Below are positions 8,928 to 39,695 of a stretch of 64,000 nt of DNA, piece by piece. The stretch is taken from contig CAYGKW010000001.1 of the NCBI GenBank assembly GCA_964350815.1, positions 3,980-67,979 of the forward strand, in the 5' to 3' direction. The notes beneath the pieces are model-generated. The model was not told the DNA's origin and ran no database searches. It saw only the letters and a list, made by a program, of their open reading frames with translations. The translations under genes and the position numbers were made by a program. How positions within the stretch are numbered: the first letter of the stretch is position 1; each line of letters begins with the position of its first letter. The DNA comes from an uncultured Rhizobiaceae bacterium (GTDB lineage: Bacteria; Pseudomonadota; Alphaproteobacteria; UBA7879; VGCX01).

Positions 8928-10805
8928 ATGTCTCTTGAAAATAAATGCTTAACAAAAATAAAAAGAATTGTCCAAAATGATATAGGGCCTTTTTCCGTTC
9001 TGCCCCAAGGATCACAGGCAAGACTGATTGCTTTATTTTCCATTGAAGAATTTAAAAAAAATACCGTCATTACAAAAGCCACACAAAATGCAGATTTTTT
9101 ATATTTCCTTATTGAAGGATCTGTTGACTTAAGTATCAAAAATCAAATAATACCTATCAAAGAAGGTATGCTTTTTGGAGAAGAATGCGTTTTAGACCAA
9201 AAATCATATGTCGGTACGGCGTCTGTGAAGTCAAAAAATGTGATAATTGCAAAAATCCATAAATTTGACCTTATTCGTTTGGTTAAATATGACCGCAAAA
9301 TGTTGAATGAATTAATTCTTAATTTTTCCAGAGAATTTACACGTAAATTTCAGCAAAGACCTGAAAAAGGAATACGGAAACAGAAAACTGTCCAATCCTT
9401 CAACGAAGCAATTTATTTATTGGGTTGGATCTCTGCCATTATCACCCCAATTTTATTGTTTCATTTTCTTGATTTATACTTTGAATTCCAGGTAAAACAA
9501 AAATTATTTTTATGCATTTTGTCTGGAACCCTAATTACTTGGGCCTTCAGACTTGTCCCTGAATTCATCCCATCTATTTTTGCGCTACTTATAAGTCTAG
9601 GTATTGGTCTAACCGATCCAAAAGTTATTTTATCTGGGTTTTCGTCGCGAACATTTATTATGGCCTTGGGAATCTTTGGAATTGCCGCCATTATTATGTC
9701 TTCAGGATTACTATATAGAATTTTATTAAATTTATTAAACAAAGTCCCCAAAAATAATATTCTTGTGAATATGTCCATGTTTACGCTTGGGGCAGCACTT
9801 ACACCAACGGTTCCAGATACAGCCAACAGATTAAATCTTTCGGTTTCTTTCGTTAAAGATGCTTATGCAACCTTGCGCATGCACCACAAAGATAAAATGT
9901 GGACTGTTGTTGTTGCAAACGCCTTACAAAGCGTTACTTTGCTGGGCCCTACATTTTTAAGTAGTTCGGTACGAAACTACGTTTTGCTTGGGTTGTTTTG
10001 GGGGCAATATCAAACCCAATTTCAATGGATGGGATGGTTAAAAGCTTCGATCGTTACAGCCTTGATATTGATGACTTTGCATGCCATTTTAATGGCCTTA
10101 TTAATGCGCGGATTTACAAAAATCAAGCTTTCCAGAAATTTGATCACCCGGCAAATTGAAACTCTTGGCTCCCCCACTTCTTATGAATGGGCGGCTGGCA
10201 TTGGGACCTTTATTTGTTTTATTGGGATGGCCACCACAAGATATCACCGCATTAACCCCGAAACAATTGCCTTGCTTGTCTTATCAACCTTATTAACTTT
10301 CAGTTTTATCCGTCGCGATGGCTTTAATACTGACATAAACTGGCCCGAACTTGTTTACCTTGCTGGAATCACAGGGTTATTATCAACAGCAAATCACCTT
10401 GGTCTTCTTGATGTTGTTTCTGAAAAACTTAATTTTGTTGGGAGCTATATGTTAGAGAATTTTAACAAAACCATTGCCATTATTTTTGTATTAATAACCT
10501 TAACCCGACTTGTAATGCCCAAAGGGCCAACGATATTTATTTTTGGGTCGATACTTATACCTATCTCGCAGTCAATTGGAATTTCACCTTGGTTAATGGC
10601 CTTTGTTGTTTTGATTTTTGGGGAATCTTTTTATTTTCCTTTTCAGTCACCTGAATATGGAAATTTTAGATATGATTTGATGAAACATCATCCTTTTAAA
10701 GAAACGTCTGTGCTGATATTAAATGCAGCCCTTAATCTTTTAAAGTTATTGGCTGTTTATTTAAGCATGCCTTATTGGAAATATATAGGATTATTGAGTC
10801 TTTAG
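8928..10805 (+). CDS. cyclic-nucleotide-binding domain fused to SLC13/DASS-type anion permease
   Basis: N-terminal ADFLYFLIEGSV...LFGEE cNMP fold; about 12 hydrophobic segments with VILSGFSS..F and INWPEL motifs. Confidence 0.75.
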   Translation: MSLENKCLTKIKRIVQNDIGPFSVLPQGSQARLIALFSIEEFKKNTVITKATQNADFLYFLIEGSVDLSIKNQIIPIKEGMLFGEECVLDQKSYVGTASVKSKNVIIAKIHKFDLIRLVKYDRKMLNELILNFSREFTRKFQQRPEKGIRKQKTVQSFNEAIYLLGWISAIITPILLFHFLDLYFEFQVKQKLFLCILSGTLITWAFRLVPEFIPSIFALLISLGIGLTDPKVILSGFSSRTFIMALGIFGIAAIIMSSGLLYRILLNLLNKVPKNNILVNMSMFTLGAALTPTVPDTANRLNLSVSFVKDAYATLRMHHKDKMWTVVVANALQSVTLLGPTFLSSSVRNYVLLGLFWGQYQTQFQWMGWLKASIVTALILMTLHAILMALLMRGFTKIKLSRNLITRQIETLGSPTSYEWAAGIGTFICFIGMATTRYHRINPETIALLVLSTLLTFSFIRRDGFNTDINWPELVYLAGITGLLSTANHLGLLDVVSEKLNFVGSYMLENFNKTIAIIFVLITLTRLVMPKGPTIFIFGSILIPISQSIGISPWLMAFVVLIFGESFYFPFQSPEYGNFRYDLMKHHPFKETSVLILNAALNLLKLLAVYLSMPYWKYIGLLSL

Positions 10806-10806
10806 T

Positions 10807-11856
10807 ATGTTTAAAAAAAGATTTTTCATAGTAAAAGGTATTTTGATTTTAGTCATTTTTTGGTTTATTTTATCTTATAATTTAAATCGTCCAAGGGTGA
10901 TGGTTATACACAGTTATTCTTCAACTTTATCTTCTGTTAGGGCTTTCAGCCGGGGCTTTGATGAGGCCTTAAAACATGACAAAAATCCATCCACATTAAC
11001 GTACTATATGAACACTTTAAATCGTCAAAAAGAACGCAACAAAGTAGGTTCTGGTGTATCTGCTGTCGGTATTATTGAGGATTTCAAACCACAAGTTATC
11101 GTTGCCGTCGGCGAAGAGGCCCAAGAATATGTGACCAAGAAATATATTGACCATCCAGAAATTAAAATCGTTTATGCAAAGATAAAAAACCCAGGTTTAT
11201 ATGGTTACGAAACAGCAAAAAATATTACTGGCGTTCGTGAACAATTCCCCCTAAAAGAAGTTAAAAATGTTTTGTTGGACCTTACCCCCAAAAAACGTCT
11301 AAAGCTTGCTTCTATTGGTGATCAAACAACCTTAATGTCAGCAGACGACAATTTTATTATTGAACATTCTTGGGATCCCCATGTGATTACAGATTCCCTT
11401 ATGGTTAAAAATTTTGATGAATGGAAAAAAGCGATTCGTAAGTTAAATAAAATGAAAGAAGTTGATTTTATTTTAGTATCTAACTACAGAAATATAAAAG
11501 AATCTTCAGACAGTCAAAAAGTCTTATATCATAAAGATGTCATAGCCTGGACCATTGAAAATTCGGAAATCCCTGTTGTTGGCCTTTATGAAACAAATTC
11601 CAAGGATGGGGTACCCATTTCAATTTCAACTTCTTCTTATACCGAAGGGCAATCAACTGCAAAATTGGTTCTTGAAATTATCCAAGAAAGTTCTGTAAAA
11701 ACCAAGCAATTAGAAACCCAGCATTTTTTAGTTAGTTTAAACACAAAATATTCAATGTATGACGATTTAAAAGTCCCCGAAATATATAAATCTTTTGCAA
11801 TAGCATCAGGGTTATATTACGAAAGCAGTATGCGAAATGGTAAATATAAAATATAA
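10807..11856 (+). CDS. ABC-type substrate-binding / periplasmic sensor-like protein
   Basis: N-terminal TM then VMVIHSYS...GFDEAL, VIVAVGEEA; resembles ABC_sub_bind family. Confidence 0.65.
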   Translation: MFKKRFFIVKGILILVIFWFILSYNLNRPRVMVIHSYSSTLSSVRAFSRGFDEALKHDKNPSTLTYYMNTLNRQKERNKVGSGVSAVGIIEDFKPQVIVAVGEEAQEYVTKKYIDHPEIKIVYAKIKNPGLYGYETAKNITGVREQFPLKEVKNVLLDLTPKKRLKLASIGDQTTLMSADDNFIIEHSWDPHVITDSLMVKNFDEWKKAIRKLNKMKEVDFILVSNYRNIKESSDSQKVLYHKDVIAWTIENSEIPVVGLYETNSKDGVPISISTSSYTEGQSTAKLVLEIIQESSVKTKQLETQHFLVSLNTKYSMYDDLKVPEIYKSFAIASGLYYESSMRNGKYKI

Positions 11857-12871
11857 ATTAATACTTTTATTTCTAACCTTTTTTACTTCCTTTGAAGCAT
11901 CAGCAAAAAGGCTGCAGATTAGGTCTGTTGGATCAACAACAGTCTATCCATTTTCAGTAAAAGTATCTGAAGCCTTTGCAAAAAAATATAAGACTTTGGA
12001 ACCTCTTGTTACCAGTACAGGAACAGGCCAAGGCATAGACCAGTTTTGCAGCACAAGCCAAAATGAATTCTCCCCTGACTTTACGGGTGCTTCAAGAAAA
12101 ATTAAAGATAACGAAATTCAGATGTGTAAAAACAATAAAGTTGGACCAATTATAGAATTGCCTATTGGATATGATGGGATTATCTTGGCCCTTAAAAAAG
12201 GCACGAAATTCACCAATATCAGTCTTGAAGAACTTTTTCTAGCCACCTCGAAAATAATACCAAACAAACATGGCAAACTAATTAAAAATCCCTATAAAAA
12301 ATGGCGCGATATTAACCCAAGATTACCCAATATAAAAATACAAATTTTATTGCCACAAGTTCAAAACGGTACCTATGGATCCTTTATGGAACTGGCAATG
12401 GATGAAGGCTGCAAAGGCAACAGTTATATGAAAAAATTATTAGACACCAGTGGAAAATCTTATAAAGAGTTGTGCCAAACATATCGCAATGATGGGGATT
12501 ATGTGACTATTGCCACAAAATATGACCTTGGCGATTCACATGATTTATTCATCCAAAAAATATATGACAACCCAGGAATGCTTGGCGTCATGGGATACAG
12601 TTTTCTTAAACAATTTAAAGAAAAAATTGATGCGATTTCTGTTGGAAATGTATCTGCACATTTTGATAAAATTTCATCTTTAGAATACCCCTTATCAAGA
12701 CTTTTATATATCTATGTTCGCAAAGACAGATTGAATAAAGTAGAAGGCCTGAAAGATTTCATAGATTTCTATCAGTCTGATGAAATGTCAGGTGATAAAG
12801 GATTGTTAGTGAACTTGGGCCTTATCCCATTTAATTTTGAGACAAGGCCCCCTATTCAGACTATTTCTTAA
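11837..12871 (+). CDS. pstS: PstS-family phosphate-binding protein
   Basis: IRSVGSTTVYPF, STGTGQGIDQFC, ASRKIK..E, IGYDGI, YPLSRLLYIYV. Confidence 0.8.
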   Translation: MVNIKYKLILLFLTFFTSFEASAKRLQIRSVGSTTVYPFSVKVSEAFAKKYKTLEPLVTSTGTGQGIDQFCSTSQNEFSPDFTGASRKIKDNEIQMCKNNKVGPIIELPIGYDGIILALKKGTKFTNISLEELFLATSKIIPNKHGKLIKNPYKKWRDINPRLPNIKIQILLPQVQNGTYGSFMELAMDEGCKGNSYMKKLLDTSGKSYKELCQTYRNDGDYVTIATKYDLGDSHDLFIQKIYDNPGMLGVMGYSFLKQFKEKIDAISVGNVSAHFDKISSLEYPLSRLLYIYVRKDRLNKVEGLKDFIDFYQSDEMSGDKGLLVNLGLIPFNFETRPPIQTIS

Positions 12872-12951: not shown

Positions 12952-13608
12952 ATGAGGCTTTTAATTGTTTTTCTAACGTGCATTACCCTTTCAAATTCTG
13001 CCCCTGCTTTAAAGCAGAGATATTCTGATAATAGCACCGTTAATAATCATCTTATATGGCCAACTATGGGATCTATGGCCAAGGAAAAATTGCGATTTGC
13101 AGTTGACCAAGGCGCAACCAGCCAGGTCATCAGCACGGATGAAATGCAAACCATCATTGATATTACTGGCAAATATTATGTTCGTATGACAATGAATGGG
13201 GTTTCCAGGGCAAAAATATTGCATGCCAATGTAAAAAACTGGATGGATGTAATTGGTAAACTAAAAAATCACACACACACCTTCAAAAAAAGCGATGCTT
13301 ATTTTGATGAAAAAAAGAAAGCCTTTGCCTTATATGCCCAACAATTAAAAGACCTTTCTAAATATCTTAAAAAAGCCAAGTACAATGCTGAATTTGTTTC
13401 AGACTTTTTATATAAACTTTACGATCTTAATCGTTTAACCTTTGAACAGGTTGGTGAATTCATCCAAGACCTGAAAAAGAATTACAGCCCTAAATCAAAT
13501 GAAACTGATCTGGATGAAATTTTGGATCAGTTTATTGAAAAAGCACAATCTGCAAGGGCAGACGAAGATGAAATCGATGATGATATATCGATTCCTGGAC
13601 TTTATTAA
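12952..13608 (+). CDS. hypothetical secreted protein
   Basis: 218-aa ORF, GAGGA RBS, signal peptide MRLLIVFLTCITLSNSAPA. Confidence 0.7.
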   Translation: MRLLIVFLTCITLSNSAPALKQRYSDNSTVNNHLIWPTMGSMAKEKLRFAVDQGATSQVISTDEMQTIIDITGKYYVRMTMNGVSRAKILHANVKNWMDVIGKLKNHTHTFKKSDAYFDEKKKAFALYAQQLKDLSKYLKKAKYNAEFVSDFLYKLYDLNRLTFEQVGEFIQDLKKNYSPKSNETDLDEILDQFIEKAQSARADEDEIDDDISIPGLY

Positions 13609-13631
13609 AAGTTCTGTTATACAACTTAAGT

Positions 13632-14150
13632 ATGCGATATTACATCATAGGAACATCTGGCACGGGGAAAAGCACCCTTGCCAAGAACATCAGCCAGCAA
13701 CAAAACATTCCCCACATTGAACTGGATTTTTATCGCTTTAAAGACAACTGGGCAAAGCGACCTGACCAAGAACTGTATACTATCATAACGCAAAAAACGT
13801 CGCGTAACGATTGGGTTGTGTGTGGCAACGAATCTGGCGAACTAAGGGATCACCTTATGAATAAAGCCACACATATTATTTGGCTGGATTATCCCTTTTA
13901 TCTTATATTTTATCGTGTTTTTATTCGAACCTTTCGACGTATACTTCTTAAAGAAAAATCTTGTGGAGGCAATCAAGAAACTTTTTATATGCAGTTTTTT
14001 ACAAAATATTCAATTTTTCTGTGGGTTTTAAAAACTTATCATAAACGTAAAAGACGTTATACCCCAATGTTATCTTGCCCCAAATTTAAAAAGAAAATGG
14101 TACATCTAAAAACCCCTAAAGATGCGAAAATATTTTTAAAAAACCTATAG
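13632..14150 (+). CDS. adenylate-kinase-like P-loop protein (topology modulation protein/FlaR-like)
   Basis: IIGTSGTGKSTLA Walker A, HIELD, IIWLDYP. Confidence 0.8.
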   Translation: MRYYIIGTSGTGKSTLAKNISQQQNIPHIELDFYRFKDNWAKRPDQELYTIITQKTSRNDWVVCGNESGELRDHLMNKATHIIWLDYPFYLIFYRVFIRTFRRILLKEKSCGGNQETFYMQFFTKYSIFLWVLKTYHKRKRRYTPMLSCPKFKKKMVHLKTPKDAKIFLKNL

Positions 14151-14221
14151 AACTGTAAAATATCTTTACATCCCTAAAATTCCTGACATAATAATATGTA
14201 TACATATTATATTGAGGTTAC

Positions 14222-14635
14222 ATGGAAAAAAATACAGGATATATTCTTTGGCGCGTGGCCAATTGTTGGAATCGAAAGATTGAAAAGGGCTTAAGCCCCC
14301 TTAACATAAGCCAAGTTCAATTTATTTTAATGGCAGGCCTTGATCGTTTTACGCAAAATAAATGTTATGTTCGCCAACAAGACCTATCAAAGTACTGTCA
14401 TACAGATATAAATGTCACTTCCCAAGCCCTACGAAAACTTGAATCCAAAGGGATGGTTGAACGTGTTTATCGCAAAGGCAACAATAAATCCAGATATCCC
14501 GTCTTAACAGATTTAGGCAAAGCCACACTGGTAAAAGCCCATGAAATATCCAAAATTGCTCATACAGAATTTTTTAAAGAGGATGGTAATCAATTAAACC
14601 AAAAATTGGCAAGTATTCTCCGTCCGATAGATTGA
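14222..14635 (+). CDS. MarR family transcriptional regulator
   Basis: LNISQVQFILM, TSQALRKLESKGMVER...RYPVLTDLG winged helix. Confidence 0.85.
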   Translation: MEKNTGYILWRVANCWNRKIEKGLSPLNISQVQFILMAGLDRFTQNKCYVRQQDLSKYCHTDINVTSQALRKLESKGMVERVYRKGNNKSRYPVLTDLGKATLVKAHEISKIAHTEFFKEDGNQLNQKLASILRPID

Positions 14636-14660
14636 TTCTTTTCTAAGCAAGTGCTATCTT
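14632..14660 (+). promoter_or_regulatory. putative sigma70 promoter giving a leaderless mRNA for the carrier gene
   Basis: TTGATT (14632-14637), 17-nt spacer, TGc-TATCTT (14652-14660), 6 nt, then ATG 14667; no Shine-Dalgarno. Confidence 0.5.
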
Positions 14661-14666
14661 GCCTGC

Positions 14667-15575
14667 ATGAGAATGTATCGAATACTTACACTGTTCATAA
14701 TGTTTTTGGGTATCCCGGTCCAAGGAAATGCGTCTAAAAACTTCACGTGGGAAAATTATGCAAAAGTCAGTACTTATGGTGCGATCCGTGGGGCCGTTGC
14801 CCTGCCCTTTGAACATCCTTTGGATTGTTTAAAAACGAATATGCAGGCCTTACCTGGCAATCACAGTGCCTTGGCAGTTACCAAAAACATCTATCGCACC
14901 AAAGGATTTTTAGGTTTTTACCGTGGATATATTCCCAACACAGTTCGTGTGGTTATTAAACAGATCTATCGCTGGCCCATGATGTTATTTATTCCTTTGG
15001 GGCTGGAATCTTTGGAAATTTTTAAACGGTCTGAAATGAATAAATTGGTATCAGCCATTATTATTGCCAATTTTGAATGCTTTATTATCACCCCCCTTGA
15101 ACGCATCAAAGTTTGGTTAATGACACACCTGAAAAATAAAGGGGGGTTGGTTTATTTTCTAACAAAGAATAAAAAAGGTTTGGGAGGCCAGTTAATGGCA
15201 GGACTCCGGCCTGTATATGCCAAGCAAATGGTGTCCTGGATTACATTTTTGGTGGCTGACGATTTTTTCAGAGGCAGCGCCCGTAAATATTTCAACGCTG
15301 ATGGGCCCCTCGATTTTTGGATTTTATTTATCATCAGTATTTTTGTAGGGATTATTAACACATTGTGTATCATGCCCTTTGACTGCGTTAAGACACACCA
15401 TCAGAAAAACACAACCACTGGCCGGGTGCGTCTTTTTAAAACAATGCGTGAATTATATCACCAACATGGCTGGGCAGGGTTATACAATGGCTGGAAAGTG
15501 CGCATCTTTCACTTTATTGTTCATGCCAGTTTTACCGTCACCATTCTGGAAAGATTGGAAGTGGCATTGCGATGA
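14667..15575 (+). CDS. mitochondrial carrier family (SLC25) protein with N-terminal signal-like peptide
   Basis: Three ~100-aa repeats with Px[DE]xx[KR]: PLDCLKT, PLERIKV, PFDCVKT; second half-motifs KGFLGFYRG, GGQLMAGL, HGWAGLYNG; 302 aa. Confidence 0.92.
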   Translation: MRMYRILTLFIMFLGIPVQGNASKNFTWENYAKVSTYGAIRGAVALPFEHPLDCLKTNMQALPGNHSALAVTKNIYRTKGFLGFYRGYIPNTVRVVIKQIYRWPMMLFIPLGLESLEIFKRSEMNKLVSAIIIANFECFIITPLERIKVWLMTHLKNKGGLVYFLTKNKKGLGGQLMAGLRPVYAKQMVSWITFLVADDFFRGSARKYFNADGPLDFWILFIISIFVGIINTLCIMPFDCVKTHHQKNTTTGRVRLFKTMRELYHQHGWAGLYNGWKVRIFHFIVHASFTVTILERLEVALR

Positions 15576-15669
15576 AATCCTGGCAGAAATATTAATGGTG
15601 TCAAAAGGCACCAACAACGACACCTACAAACCGTAGATTAAAAGCGCAATAACGCTGTGCCAGCGTTAA

Positions 15670-16572
15670 CTATTTTTTTCCTAGCGGGTGATGATTCATA
15701 ACCAAGTCCTGCAGTTTATCTTGCAATACATGGGTGTAAATTTGGGTGGTTGATATGTCAGAATGCCCCAACATTTTCTGGACAGAAATTAAATCTGCCC
15801 CATGGCTTAATAGGTGTGTTGCAAAAGCATGGCGCACAACATGCGGGGATATTTTACTGGGATCCAATCCAGCATCAATTGCCAATTGTTTTAACAACTG
15901 ACCAAATCGTTGACGTGTCAGATGGCCTTCGGCACTGCTGGATGGAAACAACCATTTACTGGATTTTTGTGCTGCCAAGAAATGGGGTCGGATCCCGATA
16001 TATTTTTTCAAAGCATTCCGGGCATGCTTACCAAGCGGGACAATGCGTTCCTTTGCCCCCTTTCCTTTGACAATAAGTGTATCTGTTTCATAAGAAAAAG
16101 CTTCGTGTGTCAAAGTCATTAATTCGGAAACACGCAAACCAGTCGCATAAAGTGTTTCAAGCAATGCTGTAAGACGATATCCTTCAGGCGAATCATTTTC
16201 TGCAGCTGTTGATAACAACGCCCCAATATCTGTCTCAGTTAATATTTTTGGTAAGTTTTTTGCCTGACGTGGCGTGGAAATTTTGGTTGTTGGATCTTGT
16301 GATATAATACCTTCTAAAACCAAAAATCGATAGAATTGTTTAATGGATGAAATATGGCGCGCAACAGAACGTGCCGACAAACCATCTGCATGTAAAGAAG
16401 ATAAATAGGCCTTTAAATCATCTGTTGATACGTTAATTAAAGTGTCTGATTTTAAGTATTGTGAAAGGGCAAGTAAATCCCTTCGATAAGATTCCAAAGT
16501 ATTCTTTGCAACCCCCCTTTCAACAATTAACATTTCAAAAAAAAGATCAAGTTTTGCAACAGAATTTGTCAC
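15670..16572 (-). CDS. xerD: tyrosine recombinase XerD
   Basis: YATGLRVSEL, GKGAKERIVP, SPHVVRHAFATHLL, LGHSDISTTQIYTH. Confidence 0.93.
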   Translation of the reverse strand: MTNSVAKLDLFFEMLIVERGVAKNTLESYRRDLLALSQYLKSDTLINVSTDDLKAYLSSLHADGLSARSVARHISSIKQFYRFLVLEGIISQDPTTKISTPRQAKNLPKILTETDIGALLSTAAENDSPEGYRLTALLETLYATGLRVSELMTLTHEAFSYETDTLIVKGKGAKERIVPLGKHARNALKKYIGIRPHFLAAQKSSKWLFPSSSAEGHLTRQRFGQLLKQLAIDAGLDPSKISPHVVRHAFATHLLSHGADLISVQKMLGHSDISTTQIYTHVLQDKLQDLVMNHHPLGKK

Positions 16573-16574
16573 CC

Positions 16575-18158
16575 TTAATCACCCTTTATTGTAGGGTATG
16601 CATGAAAAATCAATAACTGCCTGGACTGGTCAGATAAACCAATGGCATCCAGGGCACGAACAAATACACCTGTTTGCCAAACATCTGTTTCTGCAATCGA
16701 ACTGGCTGCCTTTAAAATAATACAAAGGGATTTACCAAATCCATAGCGCCCAGTAACAACATCAACTAAACGACCATCTTGCAATTTCAAAGAGTGTGCC
16801 GAATGGTCTGGAAACGTATTTAATTTAGGGCTATACAAAAATGTATGGGCCGGATCATATTTCAACTTCTGAATATGTTGGTTCAAAATTTCAGTAGTTT
16901 TATCTGATAGTTTACCCCCATCAAAACTTGTCAGAATTAATAAAGCCAATTCAGTAATTTCTTTTTCATCCAAGCATTCCATCCATGCTTGAACATAACT
17001 GGGATTTTCTAACATTATATTATGTAAAAGAAATGCATAGGCATATTCCTTATCATAATTCGCTGCGGGCAGATTATATTCAGGGCCAAAACATGCGGTG
17101 GCAACAGATAGGATCTTGTTTTTATAAGCATTCAGATAATAGGCATAAAATGCGTCTTTTTGTAAATCTTCATTTTCTGATTCTTTAAATAATTTATATA
17201 AAATGGCCCTGGATAGCGGATCATTTTCATCGCCTATTTCTTTGATTTTTATTTTCTTGGCAAATTCTTCCAAGCGGTCTTCAGGGGCAAGTTTAAGATA
17301 TTTTCCTTTTAATAATTCTTTTTTTGACGGGTCCTGTTCCACATAATATTCAAGAATTGATAACTGCATACGATCAGAGAAATCATCAAAACCAGGATCA
17401 TTCATCATTAATTCAACCATGCCAGGGGATAATGATTCAACTTGAACATTTTCAGGCACACTTTTTTTTGATAGAAGAAGTTTCATGATAAGGGGTTTTT
17501 CAATACCCGCCCCGATGCCAACCGTTTTATTTTCAAAAATTTTCTTAATCGCTTGGATAAAAGGTTTGTTTTGTTTTTCATCTTCTTTTTCAAGCAAAGC
17601 CAAACTGAATTTTGATTCATTTTCTTTGCCCATTAAAATTTGCAAAACAATCACAGCATATTGCCATTTATTATGCAGATCTTTTATGGCATTTTCTTGG
17701 GCAATTTTAAAAGCTTTTTCATAATTATTATGAATCATAAAACGAATCAATCGACACCATGCCCACGCATCTTCATTTAATTGTTCAGGATGTTTTTTTC
17801 CTAAATTATAGGCGGCTTCGAATGCCTCCATCTCCATCAATTTTCCAAACCTAAGGTTTAAAATATTGTCTTTGCTATCAGCCCCCTCTTCCGGGATTTT
17901 CATTGGGGATGTTAATAACGCAATTTGCAAATAAGCCCAGAATGGATTTTGAAAATGGGATGGCAGTGTTTTGATTAACTGCGCAACTTGTTGATGTGAA
18001 AGGCCCTTCCACAAATCTATGGGAATGGTTATTTGAACTTGGCCATTTACCCCACTTGTTTCTGGGTTGATACCCCCAATATCTTCTTTTTCAATGACTG
18101 CTTTTGCATCAAAAGAAAGGATTATAAATGTAAAAATTATTAAAAATATTTTCTTCAT
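16575..18158 (-). CDS. hypothetical exported alpha-helical protein
   Basis: 527-aa ORF, signal peptide MKKIFLIIFTFIILSFDAKA, closely packed between HIT and xerD. Confidence 0.75.
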   Translation of the reverse strand: MKKIFLIIFTFIILSFDAKAVIEKEDIGGINPETSGVNGQVQITIPIDLWKGLSHQQVAQLIKTLPSHFQNPFWAYLQIALLTSPMKIPEEGADSKDNILNLRFGKLMEMEAFEAAYNLGKKHPEQLNEDAWAWCRLIRFMIHNNYEKAFKIAQENAIKDLHNKWQYAVIVLQILMGKENESKFSLALLEKEDEKQNKPFIQAIKKIFENKTVGIGAGIEKPLIMKLLLSKKSVPENVQVESLSPGMVELMMNDPGFDDFSDRMQLSILEYYVEQDPSKKELLKGKYLKLAPEDRLEEFAKKIKIKEIGDENDPLSRAILYKLFKESENEDLQKDAFYAYYLNAYKNKILSVATACFGPEYNLPAANYDKEYAYAFLLHNIMLENPSYVQAWMECLDEKEITELALLILTSFDGGKLSDKTTEILNQHIQKLKYDPAHTFLYSPKLNTFPDHSAHSLKLQDGRLVDVVTGRYGFGKSLCIILKAASSIAETDVWQTGVFVRALDAIGLSDQSRQLLIFHAYPTIKGD

Positions 18159-36199: not shown

Positions 36200-37315
36200 C
36201 TAACTTTCTTTAATATTTACGAAATAGCCATTATCTCTTAATGGCTCAAACACTTGGGCATCTGTTCCTGTCAACCAAGATTGAATTCCAAGATTTAAAA
36301 TTTCCTTGAATAAGACGTGTCGTCTATTTTCATCTAAGTGGGCCACAACTTCATCCAAAAGTAAAATGGGCGTCACCTCATGAACTGTTGCAAGCAATCG
36401 CGCATTTGCCATAATTAATGTTAACAGCAAGGCTTTTTGCTCACCCGTAGAGCATACCTCAGCTTGCTGGTCACAATCAAGGTTCAAAACAAGAAATTCT
36501 GATTGATGCGCCCCAACTTTAGACCCTCCAACAATGGCATCCCGATTACGACTTTCAAAAAACCTTTCTTGAAGGCGTTCTTCAGCCTCTGTTGCAGAAT
36601 TTTCACGCACCAGCAATTCCACTTCACCCTGCAAATCCACTGCGATTTTAGGGAAACCTTCAATTTCTTGTTCCAAGAAACCTTGAAGTTGCGATAAATA
36701 ATCAAGACGATTGGCTGTAATGACAATTGATTCTTGGGCCATTTTCTGTTCCAAAACAGATAACCATTTCAGGTCACGCAATCCTTCGCGTAAAAGTTTT
36801 GATCTTTCACGTAGGGCATAATCATATCGGTAAAGATGTTTTGAATGTTCGGGGGAAAAATTTACCAACAATTTATCAAAAAATTTCCGCCGAACTGTCA
36901 TGCCATCAATAAACAGACGATCCATCTGCGGGGTTTGCCATAAAATCTTAATCCAATCATTCAAAGCTGCCTGTGATGATTTCGCCCCATTTATTTTTAC
37001 AATCCGGCGTTCTGATGGGGTTGATAAATCCAAGCCTGTGCCGATATTAATATCCTGGTCTTGGTGCGCAAAGTCAGCATTAACAAACCAGCCCATATTT
37101 GCAACATCAGACTTTCTCATTTGGGCCAATTTCGATTGACGTAATCCTTTTCCAGGACAGAACAATGAAATGGCTTCTAAGATATTGGTTTTTCCAATTC
37201 CGTTTGGGCCTGCGATAATAATCGGATCTTTTGGAACAGATAAGTTAATAGAGGAAAAATTTCTGAAATTTTGAAGCTTAAGATTTCTAAGCCAACACGG
37301 TTGGATTTCCTGCAT
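36200..37315 (-). CDS. recF: DNA replication/repair protein RecF
   Basis: GPNGIGKTNILEAIS, STGEQKALL, LLLDEVVAHLD. Confidence 0.96.
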   Translation of the reverse strand: MQEIQPCWLRNLKLQNFRNFSSINLSVPKDPIIIAGPNGIGKTNILEAISLFCPGKGLRQSKLAQMRKSDVANMGWFVNADFAHQDQDINIGTGLDLSTPSERRIVKINGAKSSQAALNDWIKILWQTPQMDRLFIDGMTVRRKFFDKLLVNFSPEHSKHLYRYDYALRERSKLLREGLRDLKWLSVLEQKMAQESIVITANRLDYLSQLQGFLEQEIEGFPKIAVDLQGEVELLVRENSATEAEERLQERFFESRNRDAIVGGSKVGAHQSEFLVLNLDCDQQAEVCSTGEQKALLLTLIMANARLLATVHEVTPILLLDEVVAHLDENRRHVLFKEILNLGIQSWLTGTDAQVFEPLRDNGYFVNIKES

Positions 37316-37325
37316 CCCAAAATAC

Positions 37326-38444
37326 CTAGACGCGCATTGGCATCAAAACATACAAACTGCCTTCATCTTCCAAACCACGAATAATGGCTGGGGCTGTTTC
37401 ATCTGCCAATAAAAATTTCAAAGTATCACTTTCAACTTGTTGGCAAATATCCAAAACATATCTGGCATTGAAACCGATATTCATACGCTTACCGCCATAG
37501 GTTGCTTCGATTTCTTCGGCGCCACTTCCTTGGTCACTGTTGGAAACAGAAACTTGAACCTTGTTTGATTCAATTGTAATTTTGATTGATCTGGTTTTGT
37601 CTGATGAAATGGTGGCAATACGATCCACGGCTTCGGCAAAACTTTTGCGACTGATGGTTAAAACACTTTGGTTATCATACGGAATGACTTTTTCATAATC
37701 AGGAAAAGCCCCATCAATTAACCGGGATGTAATTTGAACATGTCCTAAGTTAAACGCAATTTGTGTGTGGGATAGGGAAACTTTAACGTTACCTTCCCTG
37801 TTTTCAAGTAACTTTGTTGCCTCAGCAATTGTCTTGCGGGGAATAATAACGTCTGGCATGCCATCTGCCCCATCTGGTTCAGGAATTTCAGACATGGCCA
37901 GCCTGTGACCATCCGTTGCAACTGTGCGCAAGAATGTTTCACTTTCAACTTTTTTAACGTGCAGATAAATCCCGTTCAGATAATATCGGGCCTCTTCTGT
38001 TGACATGGCAAAACGCGTACTTGCAAGCAGGTGACGTAATTCTTCAGAAGTAATCACAAAATTATGGGGGAAATCAGATGTTTTGATATTTGAAAAATCT
38101 TCTGCGGGTAAGGACGGCAAATCAAAATTTGTACGCCCTGCAGAAATGTGAAATTTACCAGAGCTTTGATCATGGGAAAGTTCAACCTCTGCACCATCTG
38201 GCAACTTGCGGGCAATGTCATAAAATGTATGGGCAGAAACTGTTGTGCTACCTTTTTGTTGAATTTTTGCAGTGACCTCTTCTTGAATAGAAATATCAAG
38301 ATCGGTTGCGGTCAACTTAAGTTTTCCCTCCACTGCTTCCAACAAAACATTGGATAGAATAGGCGTTACTGTGCGGCGTTCCACAACTGTTTGAACATGT
38401 CCTAAAGCTTTTAATAAAGTTGATTTTTCAATGGTTAATTTCAT
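37326..38444 (-). CDS. dnaN: DNA polymerase III beta clamp
   Basis: ATDLD, RYYLNGIY, VATDGHRLA, YVLMPMRV; start ATG 38444. Confidence 0.98.
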   Translation of the reverse strand: MKLTIEKSTLLKALGHVQTVVERRTVTPILSNVLLEAVEGKLKLTATDLDISIQEEVTAKIQQKGSTTVSAHTFYDIARKLPDGAEVELSHDQSSGKFHISAGRTNFDLPSLPAEDFSNIKTSDFPHNFVITSEELRHLLASTRFAMSTEEARYYLNGIYLHVKKVESETFLRTVATDGHRLAMSEIPEPDGADGMPDVIIPRKTIAEATKLLENREGNVKVSLSHTQIAFNLGHVQITSRLIDGAFPDYEKVIPYDNQSVLTISRKSFAEAVDRIATISSDKTRSIKITIESNKVQVSVSNSDQGSGAEEIEATYGGKRMNIGFNARYVLDICQQVESDTLKFLLADETAPAIIRGLEDEGSLYVLMPMRV

Positions 38445-38528
38445 GATCTGCCTTGTTTTCAAATATGCGTAAAATTCAAAATTATCATAAACTTTTTAGC
38501 CCCATTCTTCAAGCAGAATAAAGTTGAT

Positions 38529-39695
38529 TTATGTTTTTGATACATTCTTACCAATAAGCCGATTAAACAAAATCAAGAAGGCATTATTTCCCATAACATT
38601 CACAGATGTAAAGATGGGATCAAACAACAAATATATGGCCATGATCAAGGCCAACATCGGATCATTAAACCCAAGATACTTTTGAATATAAGGTAACATC
38701 ACAACCATCCCACCCCCTGGAACGGCAGAAACCGCAAATTTCGCCATAATAAAATATAAAACAAAAACCAAGTATTCTGATATTCCAGGGAACGGATATC
38801 CAAAGGCCAGCAAAATGGTTAAGGCAATCAAAGGCACGCCGATGCTGTCCCCGATCAAATGAATACTGGCTGTTGTGGGGGTCACAACCCGAACCAACTT
38901 TTCATTGCCTGTGTTCTGTTCCCCAGCGCGGAAAGTTAAGGGCATGGCTGCGGCACTGGACATGGTACTGAACCCCATCAACCCTGCTGGAAAAGCATTT
39001 CGAATGGATCGAATTGTCTTATAAAGATTAAAGCCACAACTGATAAAGTACAAAAGAAACAGATAAACAATATAAACCAAAATCAAAACGGCCAATACGG
39101 AACTGTATGACTTTAAAATCATTCGAAGACTGCCTTCATATTCCATTTTAAAAATAAATCCAAGAATGAATAAAGGCACCAAAGGCACAAAAACTTTGTT
39201 CAAAAACAAATTTGAAATTCTTTTTAATTTTTCTGACCAATTTTCAAGCATTTCACTTTTACTGACTGATGCAACAACCCCAGCAAAGAAACCTGAAAAC
39301 AAAGCCCATTCATTCGGAATATATTTGGGCAGCGCAAAGTACCAAAAAGGCAACAATTCTTCGCCTCCCATTTGACCAACGGTTGAAGAAAAGTCTGGCA
39401 TCCATACCAAAGCAATCCCATACCCAACCATGGTACTGGTAAAATTTGATAAACACACAACACCCAGTAAAGAGGCTACGAATAAAACAATATTGCCACT
39501 GAATTTTGAAAAACTGCTGAATAAAAATGAAAAGATAATAACCGGCAAACAAAATACCAAAATTTCTTTCATTGACAAACTTAAGGCCAAACTAAAACTT
39601 TTGATTTCAATGGGCACATGCATACCAAAAATACTGACGGCCAAAATCAACAACATTAATTTTATAGGCAGGTTTTGTTTTACAAATTTAATCAT
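38529..39695 (-). CDS. dicarboxylate/amino acid:cation symporter (DAACS)
   Basis: FSTMSSAAAMP, AVPGGG, TSVNVMGN motifs; multi-TM. Confidence 0.85.
   Translation of the reverse strand: MIKFVKQNLPIKLMLLILAVSIFGMHVPIEIKSFSLALSLSMKEILVFCLPVIIFSFLFSSFSKFSGNIVLFVASLLGVVCLSNFTSTMVGYGIALVWMPDFSSTVGQMGGEELLPFWYFALPKYIPNEWALFSGFFAGVVASVSKSEMLENWSEKLKRISNLFLNKVFVPLVPLFILGFIFKMEYEGSLRMILKSYSSVLAVLILVYIVYLFLLYFISCGFNLYKTIRSIRNAFPAGLMGFSTMSSAAAMPLTFRAGEQNTGNEKLVRVVTPTTASIHLIGDSIGVPLIALTILLAFGYPFPGISEYLVFVLYFIMAKFAVSAVPGGGMVVMLPYIQKYLGFNDPMLALIMAIYLLFDPIFTSVNVMGNNAFLILFNRLIGKNVSKT

Follow-up and report, generated by a model that had tools for sequence, protein, structure and literature searches.

Here we show that a 64,000-nucleotide stretch of bacterial DNA (contig CAYGKW010000001.1 of assembly GCA_964350815.1; the whole stretch is referred to below as the window) encodes a mitochondrial carrier, a member of a family whose usual biology is that of a nuclear gene with a product in an organelle membrane, and which lies here on an alphaproteobacterial chromosome in conserved synteny. 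The carrier is preceded by a predicted Sec-type signal peptide and belongs to a distinct subfamily with repeated ties to thiamine genes, as fusions or as direct neighbours, in six bacterial lineages. Taken as a whole, these findings are explained best, in a reading that we somewhat favour, by a carrier that sits in the bacterium's own membrane and imports a small solute, for which a thiamine-related compound is the best candidate. More tentatively, and as a joint claim that we hold to be possible rather than probable, we propose that the mitochondrial-carrier fold has been domesticated as a new class of transporter for vitamin B1 (thiamine or a precursor), with a Sec signal peptide fixing its orientation; this class would span the Chlamydiales, a gammaproteobacterium-like lineage, and the uncultured alphaproteobacterial lineage of the window, and the signal peptide would have been added in the alphaproteobacteria and in one or more further bacterial groups. 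Mitochondrial carriers are treated as a eukaryotic invention, and the sole bacterial one that has been studied, LncP, is an exported effector. The literature searched holds no report of a signal-peptide-bearing or thiamine-linked bacterial carrier, an absence that is no proof of novelty; within that literature the thiamine linkage of the subfamily is new, and a bacterial carrier as such is already known.

The open reading frame (ORF; positions 14667-15575, plus strand) starts with ATG and encodes a product of 302 amino acids. That this product is a three-repeat SLC25 carrier, as an earlier reading of the letters alone (the original prediction) had claimed, was borne out by a search with the Pfam model PF00153 (Mito_carr), which matched in three stretches (E 1.4e-31; 108.6 bits, cutoff 22.3); a search of NCBIfam, a set of bacterial family models, assigned it no family. 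The three PX[DE]XX[KR] motifs of helices 1, 3, and 5 are intact at the sites claimed for them (P51-L-D-C-L-K56, P143-L-E-R-I-K148, and P237-F-D-C-V-K242) and are invariant or nearly so throughout the subfamily, and the glycine motifs are present too (G83-F-Y-R-G87, A178-G179, and Y273-N-G275). Of the [FY][DE]XX[KR] motifs of the cytoplasmic network (helices 2, 4, and 6), located by repeat symmetry, that of helix 4 alone fits (D199-F-F-R202); at this site helix 2 has a motif of the subfamily, K98-Q-I-Y-R-W-P104, and helix 6 ends in L-E-R-L-E. Deviations from the cytoplasmic-network motif are common among bona fide carriers. By the same symmetry, the substrate contact points (G87, G179, and G275 plus 7) fall on R94, K186-Q187, and H282. 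Repeat 1 contains PLDCLK, contact point I, and the K98-P104 motif; repeat 2 contains PLERIK, contact point II, S190-W191, and D199..R202; and repeat 3 contains PFDCVK, N231-T232, R279, and contact point III.

An AlphaFold2 model of the carrier, built on 40 relatives (predicted local distance difference test, 87.4; predicted template-modelling score, 0.83), has six long helices and three short matrix helices, together with an N-terminal helix (residues 2-14) that stands apart and a low-confidence linker (residues 15-27). The top matches of a Foldseek search against the PDB were all mitochondrial carriers, namely UCP1 (template-modelling score 0.75-0.78) and then ADP/ATP carriers and the oxoglutarate carrier; by sequence these solved carriers are remote, with best E-values of 3e-4 for the carrier alone and 8e-21 for the subfamily profile. 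By every homology criterion tested, the protein is a member of the mitochondrial carrier family. Its mature part is under strong purifying selection, with a ratio of nonsynonymous to synonymous substitution rates of 0.06-0.12 in every pair of orthologues.

Annotation with Pfam reveals that the window is part of an ordinary diderm chromosome, with tpiA, a SurA-like gene, lptA/C, lpxC, PBP1, gyrB-recF-dnaN, and the atp operon, and with acrB, ftsH, priA, and two xerC/D-type genes as further housekeeping genes; among the approximately 50 ORFs of the window annotated in this way there was no secretion system, Tlc-type transporter, or other eukaryote-like gene. Scans with Rfam and for tRNA genes gave nothing in the window that could inform taxonomy. 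Its assignment to an alphaproteobacterial replicon agrees with the identities of GyrB, which are 90-95% within a small clade of metagenome-assembled genomes (MAGs), 72-75% to other MAGs of Alphaproteobacteria, and 66-68% to Dongia, Ferrovibrio, Magnetospira, and Nisaea. Orthologues of the carrier with 75-92% identity occur in four other lineages, and the order of the surrounding genes is shared (loci L001/L013, L012, L014 (Tara), L048, and L049): a transporter with a cyclic-nucleotide-binding domain (cNMP-DASS), a gene for 349 amino acids, a PstS-like gene and, at the end of this upstream half, a MarR-like gene precede the carrier, and xerD, a gene for 527 amino acids, HIT, and atpC-D-G-A follow it. 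Linkage to xerD in particular, which the original prediction had wished to see verified in reads, holds by synteny at L001, L048, and L049, where xerD also adjoins the carrier, and by Logan contigs from three samples: an independent contig from a biofilm metagenome covers positions 13600-17000 with zero differences at a depth of 30, and in two more samples short contigs run from the carrier into xerD. The guanine-plus-cytosine (GC) fraction of the carrier gene is approximately 0.40, and the local range is 0.31-0.44. Because gene order is shared, independent contigs bridge the junctions, and GC lies within the local range, the carrier gene is real and bacterial: it is chromosomal, vertically inherited, and no assembly chimera. 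We regard it as almost certainly a functional bacterial gene.

Residues 1-22 display the features of a Sec/SPase-I-type (signal peptidase I) signal peptide, and the n/h/c signal sequence that had been read there is sustained by rule-based features and by a pattern kept in five orthologues (that of the window included). The n-region (MRMYR) has two positive charges, the h-region (ILTLFIMFLGI) forms an 11-residue hydrophobic core with a mean Kyte-Doolittle (KD) value of 2.85, and the c-region (PVQGNA, followed by S23-K) has proline at -6, glycine at -3, and alanine at -1. Mean identity among the five orthologues is 28% for residues 1-22 versus 81% for residues 23-302, and the length and start position of the segment are constant, with the ATG in the same place in four of them, just past the stop codon of the MarR-like gene. 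Each orthologue has one or two basic residues, a best 11-residue KD mean of 2.8-3.5, a proline at -4 to -7, and a predicted cleavage site with small residues at -3/-1 (GNA↓S, GHA↓S, CVA↓K, SQA↓A, and SHA↓E). Random 21-codon strings of the window's composition were both stop-free and equally hydrophobic in 0.65% of trials; despite this chance level, four sequence-independent orthologous lineages all keep an open hydrophobic N-terminus. The segment also resembles the N-termini of neighbouring exported proteins, for example that of the PstS-like protein, MVNIKYKLILLFLTFFTSFEASA.

The fast drift of the sequence, the kept pattern, and the signal-peptide length of the 11-residue core argue for a signal peptide rather than an anchor. 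An uncleaved signal-anchor would yield a seven-helix protein with a cytoplasmic N-terminus; cleavage is beyond proof from sequence, the topology of helices 1-6 would be unchanged, and AlphaFold2 does render residues 2-14 as a helix. We nevertheless judge this alternative improbable, given that an 11-residue core is too short for a stable anchor, that a proline and the small-x-small motif typical of signal peptidase I sites are found in 5/5 orthologues, and that the segment drifts faster than the remainder of the protein. A further alternative, that the finding is an artefact of a chimeric contig, of a eukaryotic contaminant, or of a mis-called start with an untranslated hydrophobic segment, is barely credible. 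In its favour, no Shine-Dalgarno-like sequence lies upstream of the carrier ATG, and a TTG at Leu14 could start a shorter form that lacks the hydrophobic segment; on the other side stand the synteny common to five lineages, the junctions bridged in three samples, the ATG co-located in four lineages, and 22 codons that stay open, constant in length, and hydrophobic despite saturated synonymous divergence. Moreover, the first in-frame methionine beyond M12 is M58, which lies inside helix 1, and a start there would delete that helix and therefore destroy the carrier.

The three loops on what would be the matrix side of a mitochondrial carrier contain 19 lysine plus arginine (K+R) residues with a net charge of +17, versus 6 K+R and a net charge of 0 on the opposite side. 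By the positive-inside rule, this charge bias would make the matrix loops cytoplasmic and both termini periplasmic; in that orientation the N-terminus of helix 1 must cross the membrane, which is what a signal peptide provides. It is important to note that the K/R bias is equal in members with and without a signal peptide, and that the bias by itself does not tell the two orientations apart. Helices of the carriers of the alphaproteobacterial lineages (the alpha clade) have a mean KD of 0.85 versus 0.58 for the family (standard deviation 0.20), a suggestive excess of approximately 1.3 standard deviations, and helix 5 is the most hydrophobic helix of the window carrier (KD 2.1). Mitochondrial carriers are functional in the membrane of Lactococcus lactis, and placing lactococcal signal peptides before them improved their expression (PMC8961550); those fusions are laboratory constructs, whereas the arrangement in the window is natural, conserved, and under selection. 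Of the two fates that the original prediction had offered, insertion into the bacterium's own inner membrane is favoured by the signal peptide and the charge bias, and we consider it probable that the carrier resides there with its N-terminus out; Sec-dependent export to a host organelle is unlikely, since the hydrophobic segments, once in Sec, would pass sideways into the membrane.

From these features we infer membrane location, cleavage, orientation, substrate, and direction of transport as follows. The signal peptide would engage the signal recognition particle and SecYEG-YidC with its own N-terminus inside and its own C-terminus outside, so that helix 1 would begin on the periplasmic side. 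Insertion of the six carrier helices would leave the K/R-rich matrix loops in the cytoplasm, a mitochondrion-like orientation, and signal peptidase I would probably cleave after Ala22. A small solute would then be carried inward, from periplasm to cytoplasm. Thiamine, one of its derivatives, or a precursor is the best candidate, and the membrane potential would pull such a positively charged compound into the cell. Expression would probably be set by the MarR-type regulator encoded 31 nucleotides upstream.

A different fate is that of LncP, which with Llo3082 and Llo1358 of Legionella is, like the gene of the window, a bacterial PF00153 three-repeat carrier gene regarded as acquired from eukaryotes (PMC3252375). 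LncP differs in being a substrate of the Dot/Icm type IV system that reaches host mitochondria and carries ATP, and a secreted carrier of this kind would leave the bacterium, enter the host's mitochondrial inner membrane or vacuole membrane, and divert host metabolites. The precedent itself, the only characterised bacterial carrier, speaks for this (PMC3252375), as do a chlamydial pair of homologues within a type III secretion gene cluster (L002), the fusions to thiamine pyrophosphokinase described below, which put the carrier N-terminus on an ATP-containing side, as would be natural in a host-facing membrane, and the weak hydrophobicity of most helices, a trait reported for exported membrane effectors (PMC6110835). 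LncP is, however, thought to need to avoid YidC/SecYEG (PMC3252375), whereas the Sec signal of the window carrier would route the chain to SecYEG, where helix 5 and helix pairs would act as stop-transfer segments; substrates of type III and IV systems come from the cytoplasm and are without Sec signals. Furthermore, no secretion-system gene lies within the 64 kb, in five lineages the carrier follows a MarR-type regulator in a housekeeping neighbourhood, the alpha clade exceeds the family mean in hydrophobicity, the thiamine-linked relatives lie in operons that also encode cytoplasmic enzymes, which points to the bacterium's own metabolism, and the 64 kb show no host association of the organism. 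Contact point II is K-Q, and not of the nucleotide type. By the features that could be compared (N-terminus, neighbouring genes, and contact points), the window carrier is not an LncP-type effector; we consider such an effector role quite unlikely and a location in the bacterium's own membrane clearly preferable.

To delimit the subfamily, a profile built from the alpha clade and its first relatives was scored against 1.84 billion representatives. A word-indexed protein search had given 11 and then 22 relatives, and the exhaustive profile search was needed for the subfamily to be seen: 17,107 carriers were matched at E<=1e-3, and only 195 clusters, which define the subfamily, at E<=1e-30. Its signatures are E49-H-P-[FL]-D, K98-Q-x-Y-R-W-P104, [KR]186-Q187, S190-W191, N231-T232, and R279. 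The window protein bears all signature and cavity residues, in which it is identical to the members from L015, L002, and L004, and a 92%-identical representative scores 506 bits against the profile. The subfamily is distinct and is found in protists, rotifers, Chlamydiales, and other bacteria. Eukaryotic members include those of the ciliate Blepharisma (on a 2-Mb contig) and of bdelloid rotifers (Rotaria), and approximately ten metagenome contigs of low coding density hold further eukaryotic members, some with matches stretched by introns. Bacterial members lie on compact contigs, several of them chlamydial (Chlamydiales bacterium 38-26, Parachlamydia sp., and Parachlamydiaceae), and one chlamydial-type contig with a carrier also holds type III secretion genes.

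Several further arrangements were observed among the members. Two metagenome contigs with 25-26% GC hold four tandem subfamily paralogues each (L022, 352-4978; L037, 316-5029) and may stem from an AT-rich organism that depends on a host, of the Dependentiae type or another. In bdelloid rotifer assemblies, members without introns and with approximately 40% identity lie on gene-poor, eukaryote-type contigs (for example L006, 8001-8870, of Rotaria sp. Silwood1, CAJNZB010000355), which could be native carriers or bacterial-to-rotifer transfers. At chlamydia-type loci (L015, 5370-13066; L016, 6089-10705; L002, 2757-6382), a subfamily member is followed by a more divergent partner carrier; the pair of L016 is accompanied by an amine oxidase and TauD, and that of L002, together with thiE and a gene of the MFS type, is inserted between the type III secretion genes sctN and sctO.

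Thiamine genes accompany the carrier, as fusion partners or as neighbours, in six bacterial lineages scattered over the subfamily tree; this linkage, which the original prediction had not noticed, is the strongest clue to function. A fusion of thiamine pyrophosphokinase (TPK) and carrier, P0074, is found in two independent assemblies (L050, 8001-9971, and L051), where it is followed by thiM, thiE, thiE, and thiD and adjoins lepA-lepB-rnc; P0118, on the bacterial contig L052, is a second TPK-carrier fusion. At L015, a 1.57-Mb contig of Chlamydiales bacterium 38-26, the order is Ank, TPK, carrier, carrier, transketolase, TauD; TPK adjoins the carrier in L021 and L032; L002 has the order carrier, thiE, MFS, carrier; and the carrier P0007 lies inside a cluster of TPK, thiD, thiC, thiS, thiG, thiD/E, and thiF. 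Cavity and signature residues of thiamine-linked members and of the window protein are identical or conservatively replaced (R94, K98-Q99, Y101-R102-W103-P104, [KR]186-Q187, S190-W191, N231-T232, R279, and [QH]282). On account of these recurrent fusions and adjacencies and of the matching binding-site residues, a thiamine-related substrate is the best-supported guess for the window carrier, one that we offer with considerable reserve. As a separate observation, the carrier part of P0118 is split into two ORFs of 554 and 105 amino acids (L052, 3894-5900), which may reflect either a genuine frameshift or stop, or a sequencing error.

In a variant of the own-membrane transporter that we consider a lesser, rather doubtful possibility, the substrate would be a different cationic or zwitterionic amine, for example one resembling carnitine, betaine, choline, or a basic amino acid. 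The signature of the first repeat, xHP[FL]Dx[IVL]K, resembles that of carnitine/ornithine-type carriers, and the automatic Joint Genome Institute label of P0024 is 'SLC25 ornithine transporter 2/15'. TauD-family dioxygenases recur beside carriers (L009, L015, and L016), an amine oxidase and amino-acid symporters are also among the neighbours, and the copy in the window is without a thiamine neighbour. However, no neighbours other than thiamine genes return in lineage after independent lineage, two domain fusions included, and at L015 TauD itself co-occurs with TPK and transketolase. In addition, binding-site residues are nearly alike in thiamine-linked and other members, which argues for one substrate class.

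Import of a thiamine-related compound across the bacterium's own membrane has a number of points weighing against it. Cleavage of the signal peptide and the location of the carrier are predictions from sequence, and the TTG at Leu14 leaves room for a form without the hydrophobic segment. Helices 1, 2, and 4 are marginally hydrophobic (KD 0.3-0.5), and as helix 5 alone is strongly hydrophobic, insertion of the Sec type is less than certain. Both TPK-carrier fusions have their kinase at the N-terminus of the carrier, joined by a linker that has no hydrophobic segment; the kinase being ATP-dependent, the N-terminus in these fusions should be cytoplasmic, opposite to the orientation expected with a signal peptide, and yet the fusions share the family-wide K/R bias. 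This leaves two options, a carrier functional in both orientations or fusion proteins located in another membrane, and the conflict lowers our confidence that mechanism and substrate carry over unchanged. As to the substrate, homologues of TPK, thiC/D/E/M, transketolase, and TauD were found neither in the 64-kb window nor in the five orthologous loci, and other members adjoin TauD-type dioxygenases, amine oxidase, HAD hydrolases, or amino-acid symporters; the carrier may accept a wider range of substrates or a different one. The [KR]-Q of contact point II is unlike the G-[IVLM] typical of nucleotide-type carriers in the Robinson-Kunji scheme. Finally, among the RNA runs, none contains the carrier gene.

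The origin of the gene was considered in the light of its nearest relatives. Outside the alpha clade these are P0160-P0162 (43-44% identity), which lie on compact, bacterial-type contigs near HAD, TauD, or CitMHS genes. Signal-peptide-like N-termini occur in P0160-P0162 and in P0014, P0025, and P0036, as well as in a deep group of six members (P0098, P0100, P0108, P0119, P0142, and P0157); chlamydial members have short N-tails and no signal peptide. A neighbour-joining tree suggested a grouping of the alpha clade with other signal-peptide carriers (P0014 and P0160-P0162), which bootstrap values of 18/100 and 0/100 do not support. The alpha clade itself has a bootstrap value of 100/100, and its union with any other group one of 18/100 or less; given these weak values, we claim neither a single origin of the signal peptide nor a specific donor. 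The original prediction had the carrier acquired from a host, and a direct transfer of this kind did not find support: the nearest outside relatives lie on bacterial-type contigs, many members are chlamydial, and the immediate donor may have been another bacterium. Nor did the intracellular lifestyle that it implied find support, as the genes of the 64 kb are of the ordinary housekeeping kind and biofilm, lake, salt-lake, and seawater metagenomes are the source of the relatives.

Carrier homologues of host-dependent bacteria are known from Neorickettsia sennetsu, Chlamydiales, Rickettsiales, and Babela massiliensis (PMC3252375, PMC5621508, PMC4378268). Those of Babela are assumed to import nutrients into the bacterium (PMC4378268), and for this whole set the literature searched reports no signal peptide, substrate, or thiamine linkage. 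Yeast Tpc1p and human SLC25A19 share the carrier fold with the subfamily and move a thiamine compound through an inner membrane toward the side equivalent to the matrix (PMC9311062); the subfamily differs in having its own EHP[FL]D and KQxYRWP signatures, and solved carriers match its profile at E 1e-21 or worse. The Tlc/NTT nucleotide transporters of Rickettsiales and Chlamydiae are analogous in that host-dependent bacteria use them to bring a host metabolite through their own inner membrane, but are an unrelated family of 12 helices, and none was seen in the window. Known bacterial thiamine importers are the ThiBPQ ABC system, ECF-ThiT, and PnuT. These have the role that is proposed here and a comparable co-location with thiM, thiD, thiE, or a kinase, but differ from the carrier in their unrelated folds and energy coupling.

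If the preferred reading, import across the bacterium's own membrane, is true, the window carrier represents a use opposite to that of LncP, in which an organellar transporter of eukaryotic origin serves a bacterium in its cytoplasmic membrane, with the topology problem solved by a signal peptide that places the N-terminus outside. It would be a naturally occurring adaptation of a eukaryotic organellar transporter to membrane biogenesis in bacteria. The clustering with TPK and thiM/thiE/thiD offers a concrete hypothesis for a new family of thiamine transporters, which, if true, would supply transporters that are missing from metabolic reconstructions of Chlamydiae and other bacteria dependent on hosts, and may reveal what orphan carriers do in ciliates and rotifers.

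Table 1. Positions in the window of the parts of the carrier gene and of adjacent features.
Feature	Position	Strand	Description	Basis
Two overlapping sigma-70-like promoter matches (10/12)	14165..14210	+	Upstream of the MarR-like gene	Consensus scan, no evidence of function; candidate promoter of a two-gene operon
Divergent MarR/SlyA-family regulator gene, 137 amino acids	14222..14635	+	Ends 31 nucleotides before the carrier start	
Predicted Sec/SPase-I-type signal peptide	14667..14732	+	Residues 1-22; cleavage predicted before S23	Rule-based features
Carrier repeat 1	14748..15011	+	Residues 28-115; helix 1, matrix helix, helix 2	Pfam stretch 29-103, AlphaFold2, conservation
Carrier repeat 2	15030..15293	+	Residues 122-209; helix 3, matrix helices, helix 4	Pfam, AlphaFold2, conservation
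Carrier repeat 3	15315..15569	+	Residues 217-301; helix 5, matrix helix, helix 6	Pfam, AlphaFold2, hydrophobicity, conservation
Terminator-like hairpin, 8 pairs, then T-run	15650..15678	+	Between the carrier stop and the convergent xerD stop	Consensus scan
xerD-type tyrosine recombinase gene	15670..16572	-	Convergent with the carrier; flanking housekeeping gene that ties the carrier to the chromosome	PF00589 and PF02899

The regulator-like gene before the carrier matched PF01047 (E 1.8e-4) and, in the PDB, MarR and Rv2887 (E 1e-4), and its NCBIfam matches to SlyA, OhrR, and MarR were all below the cutoffs; a gene of 132-140 amino acids occupies the same position in L001, L048, and L049. Because the regulator lies so close upstream, with promoter-like sites before it and a terminator-like hairpin after the carrier, the arrangement suggests a two-gene regulator-transporter unit. 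An element with the sequence (A/T)GTG(A/C)TAT, located 12-14 nucleotides before the carrier ATG (14646-14666) and conserved in L012, L013, and L048, may serve regulation or translation initiation.

Among the more distant genes, those at positions 36200-39695 are of note for their order, gyrB-recF-dnaN being followed by a sodium:dicarboxylate symporter gene and not by dnaA, such that the usual dnaA-dnaN linkage is absent here. Upstream of the carrier, positions 8928-10805 encode a cyclic-nucleotide-binding domain fused to a DASS (Na/sulfate-type) symporter, which is followed at 10807-12871 by two genes for substrate-binding-like proteins, one of them PstS-like, and this trio precedes the carrier in 5/5 lineages. 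Two conserved neighbours that belong to no Pfam or NCBIfam family (12952-13608, 218 amino acids; 16575-18158, 527 amino acids) have clear signal peptides, and the gene for 527 amino acids lies between xerD and HIT at every orthologous locus.

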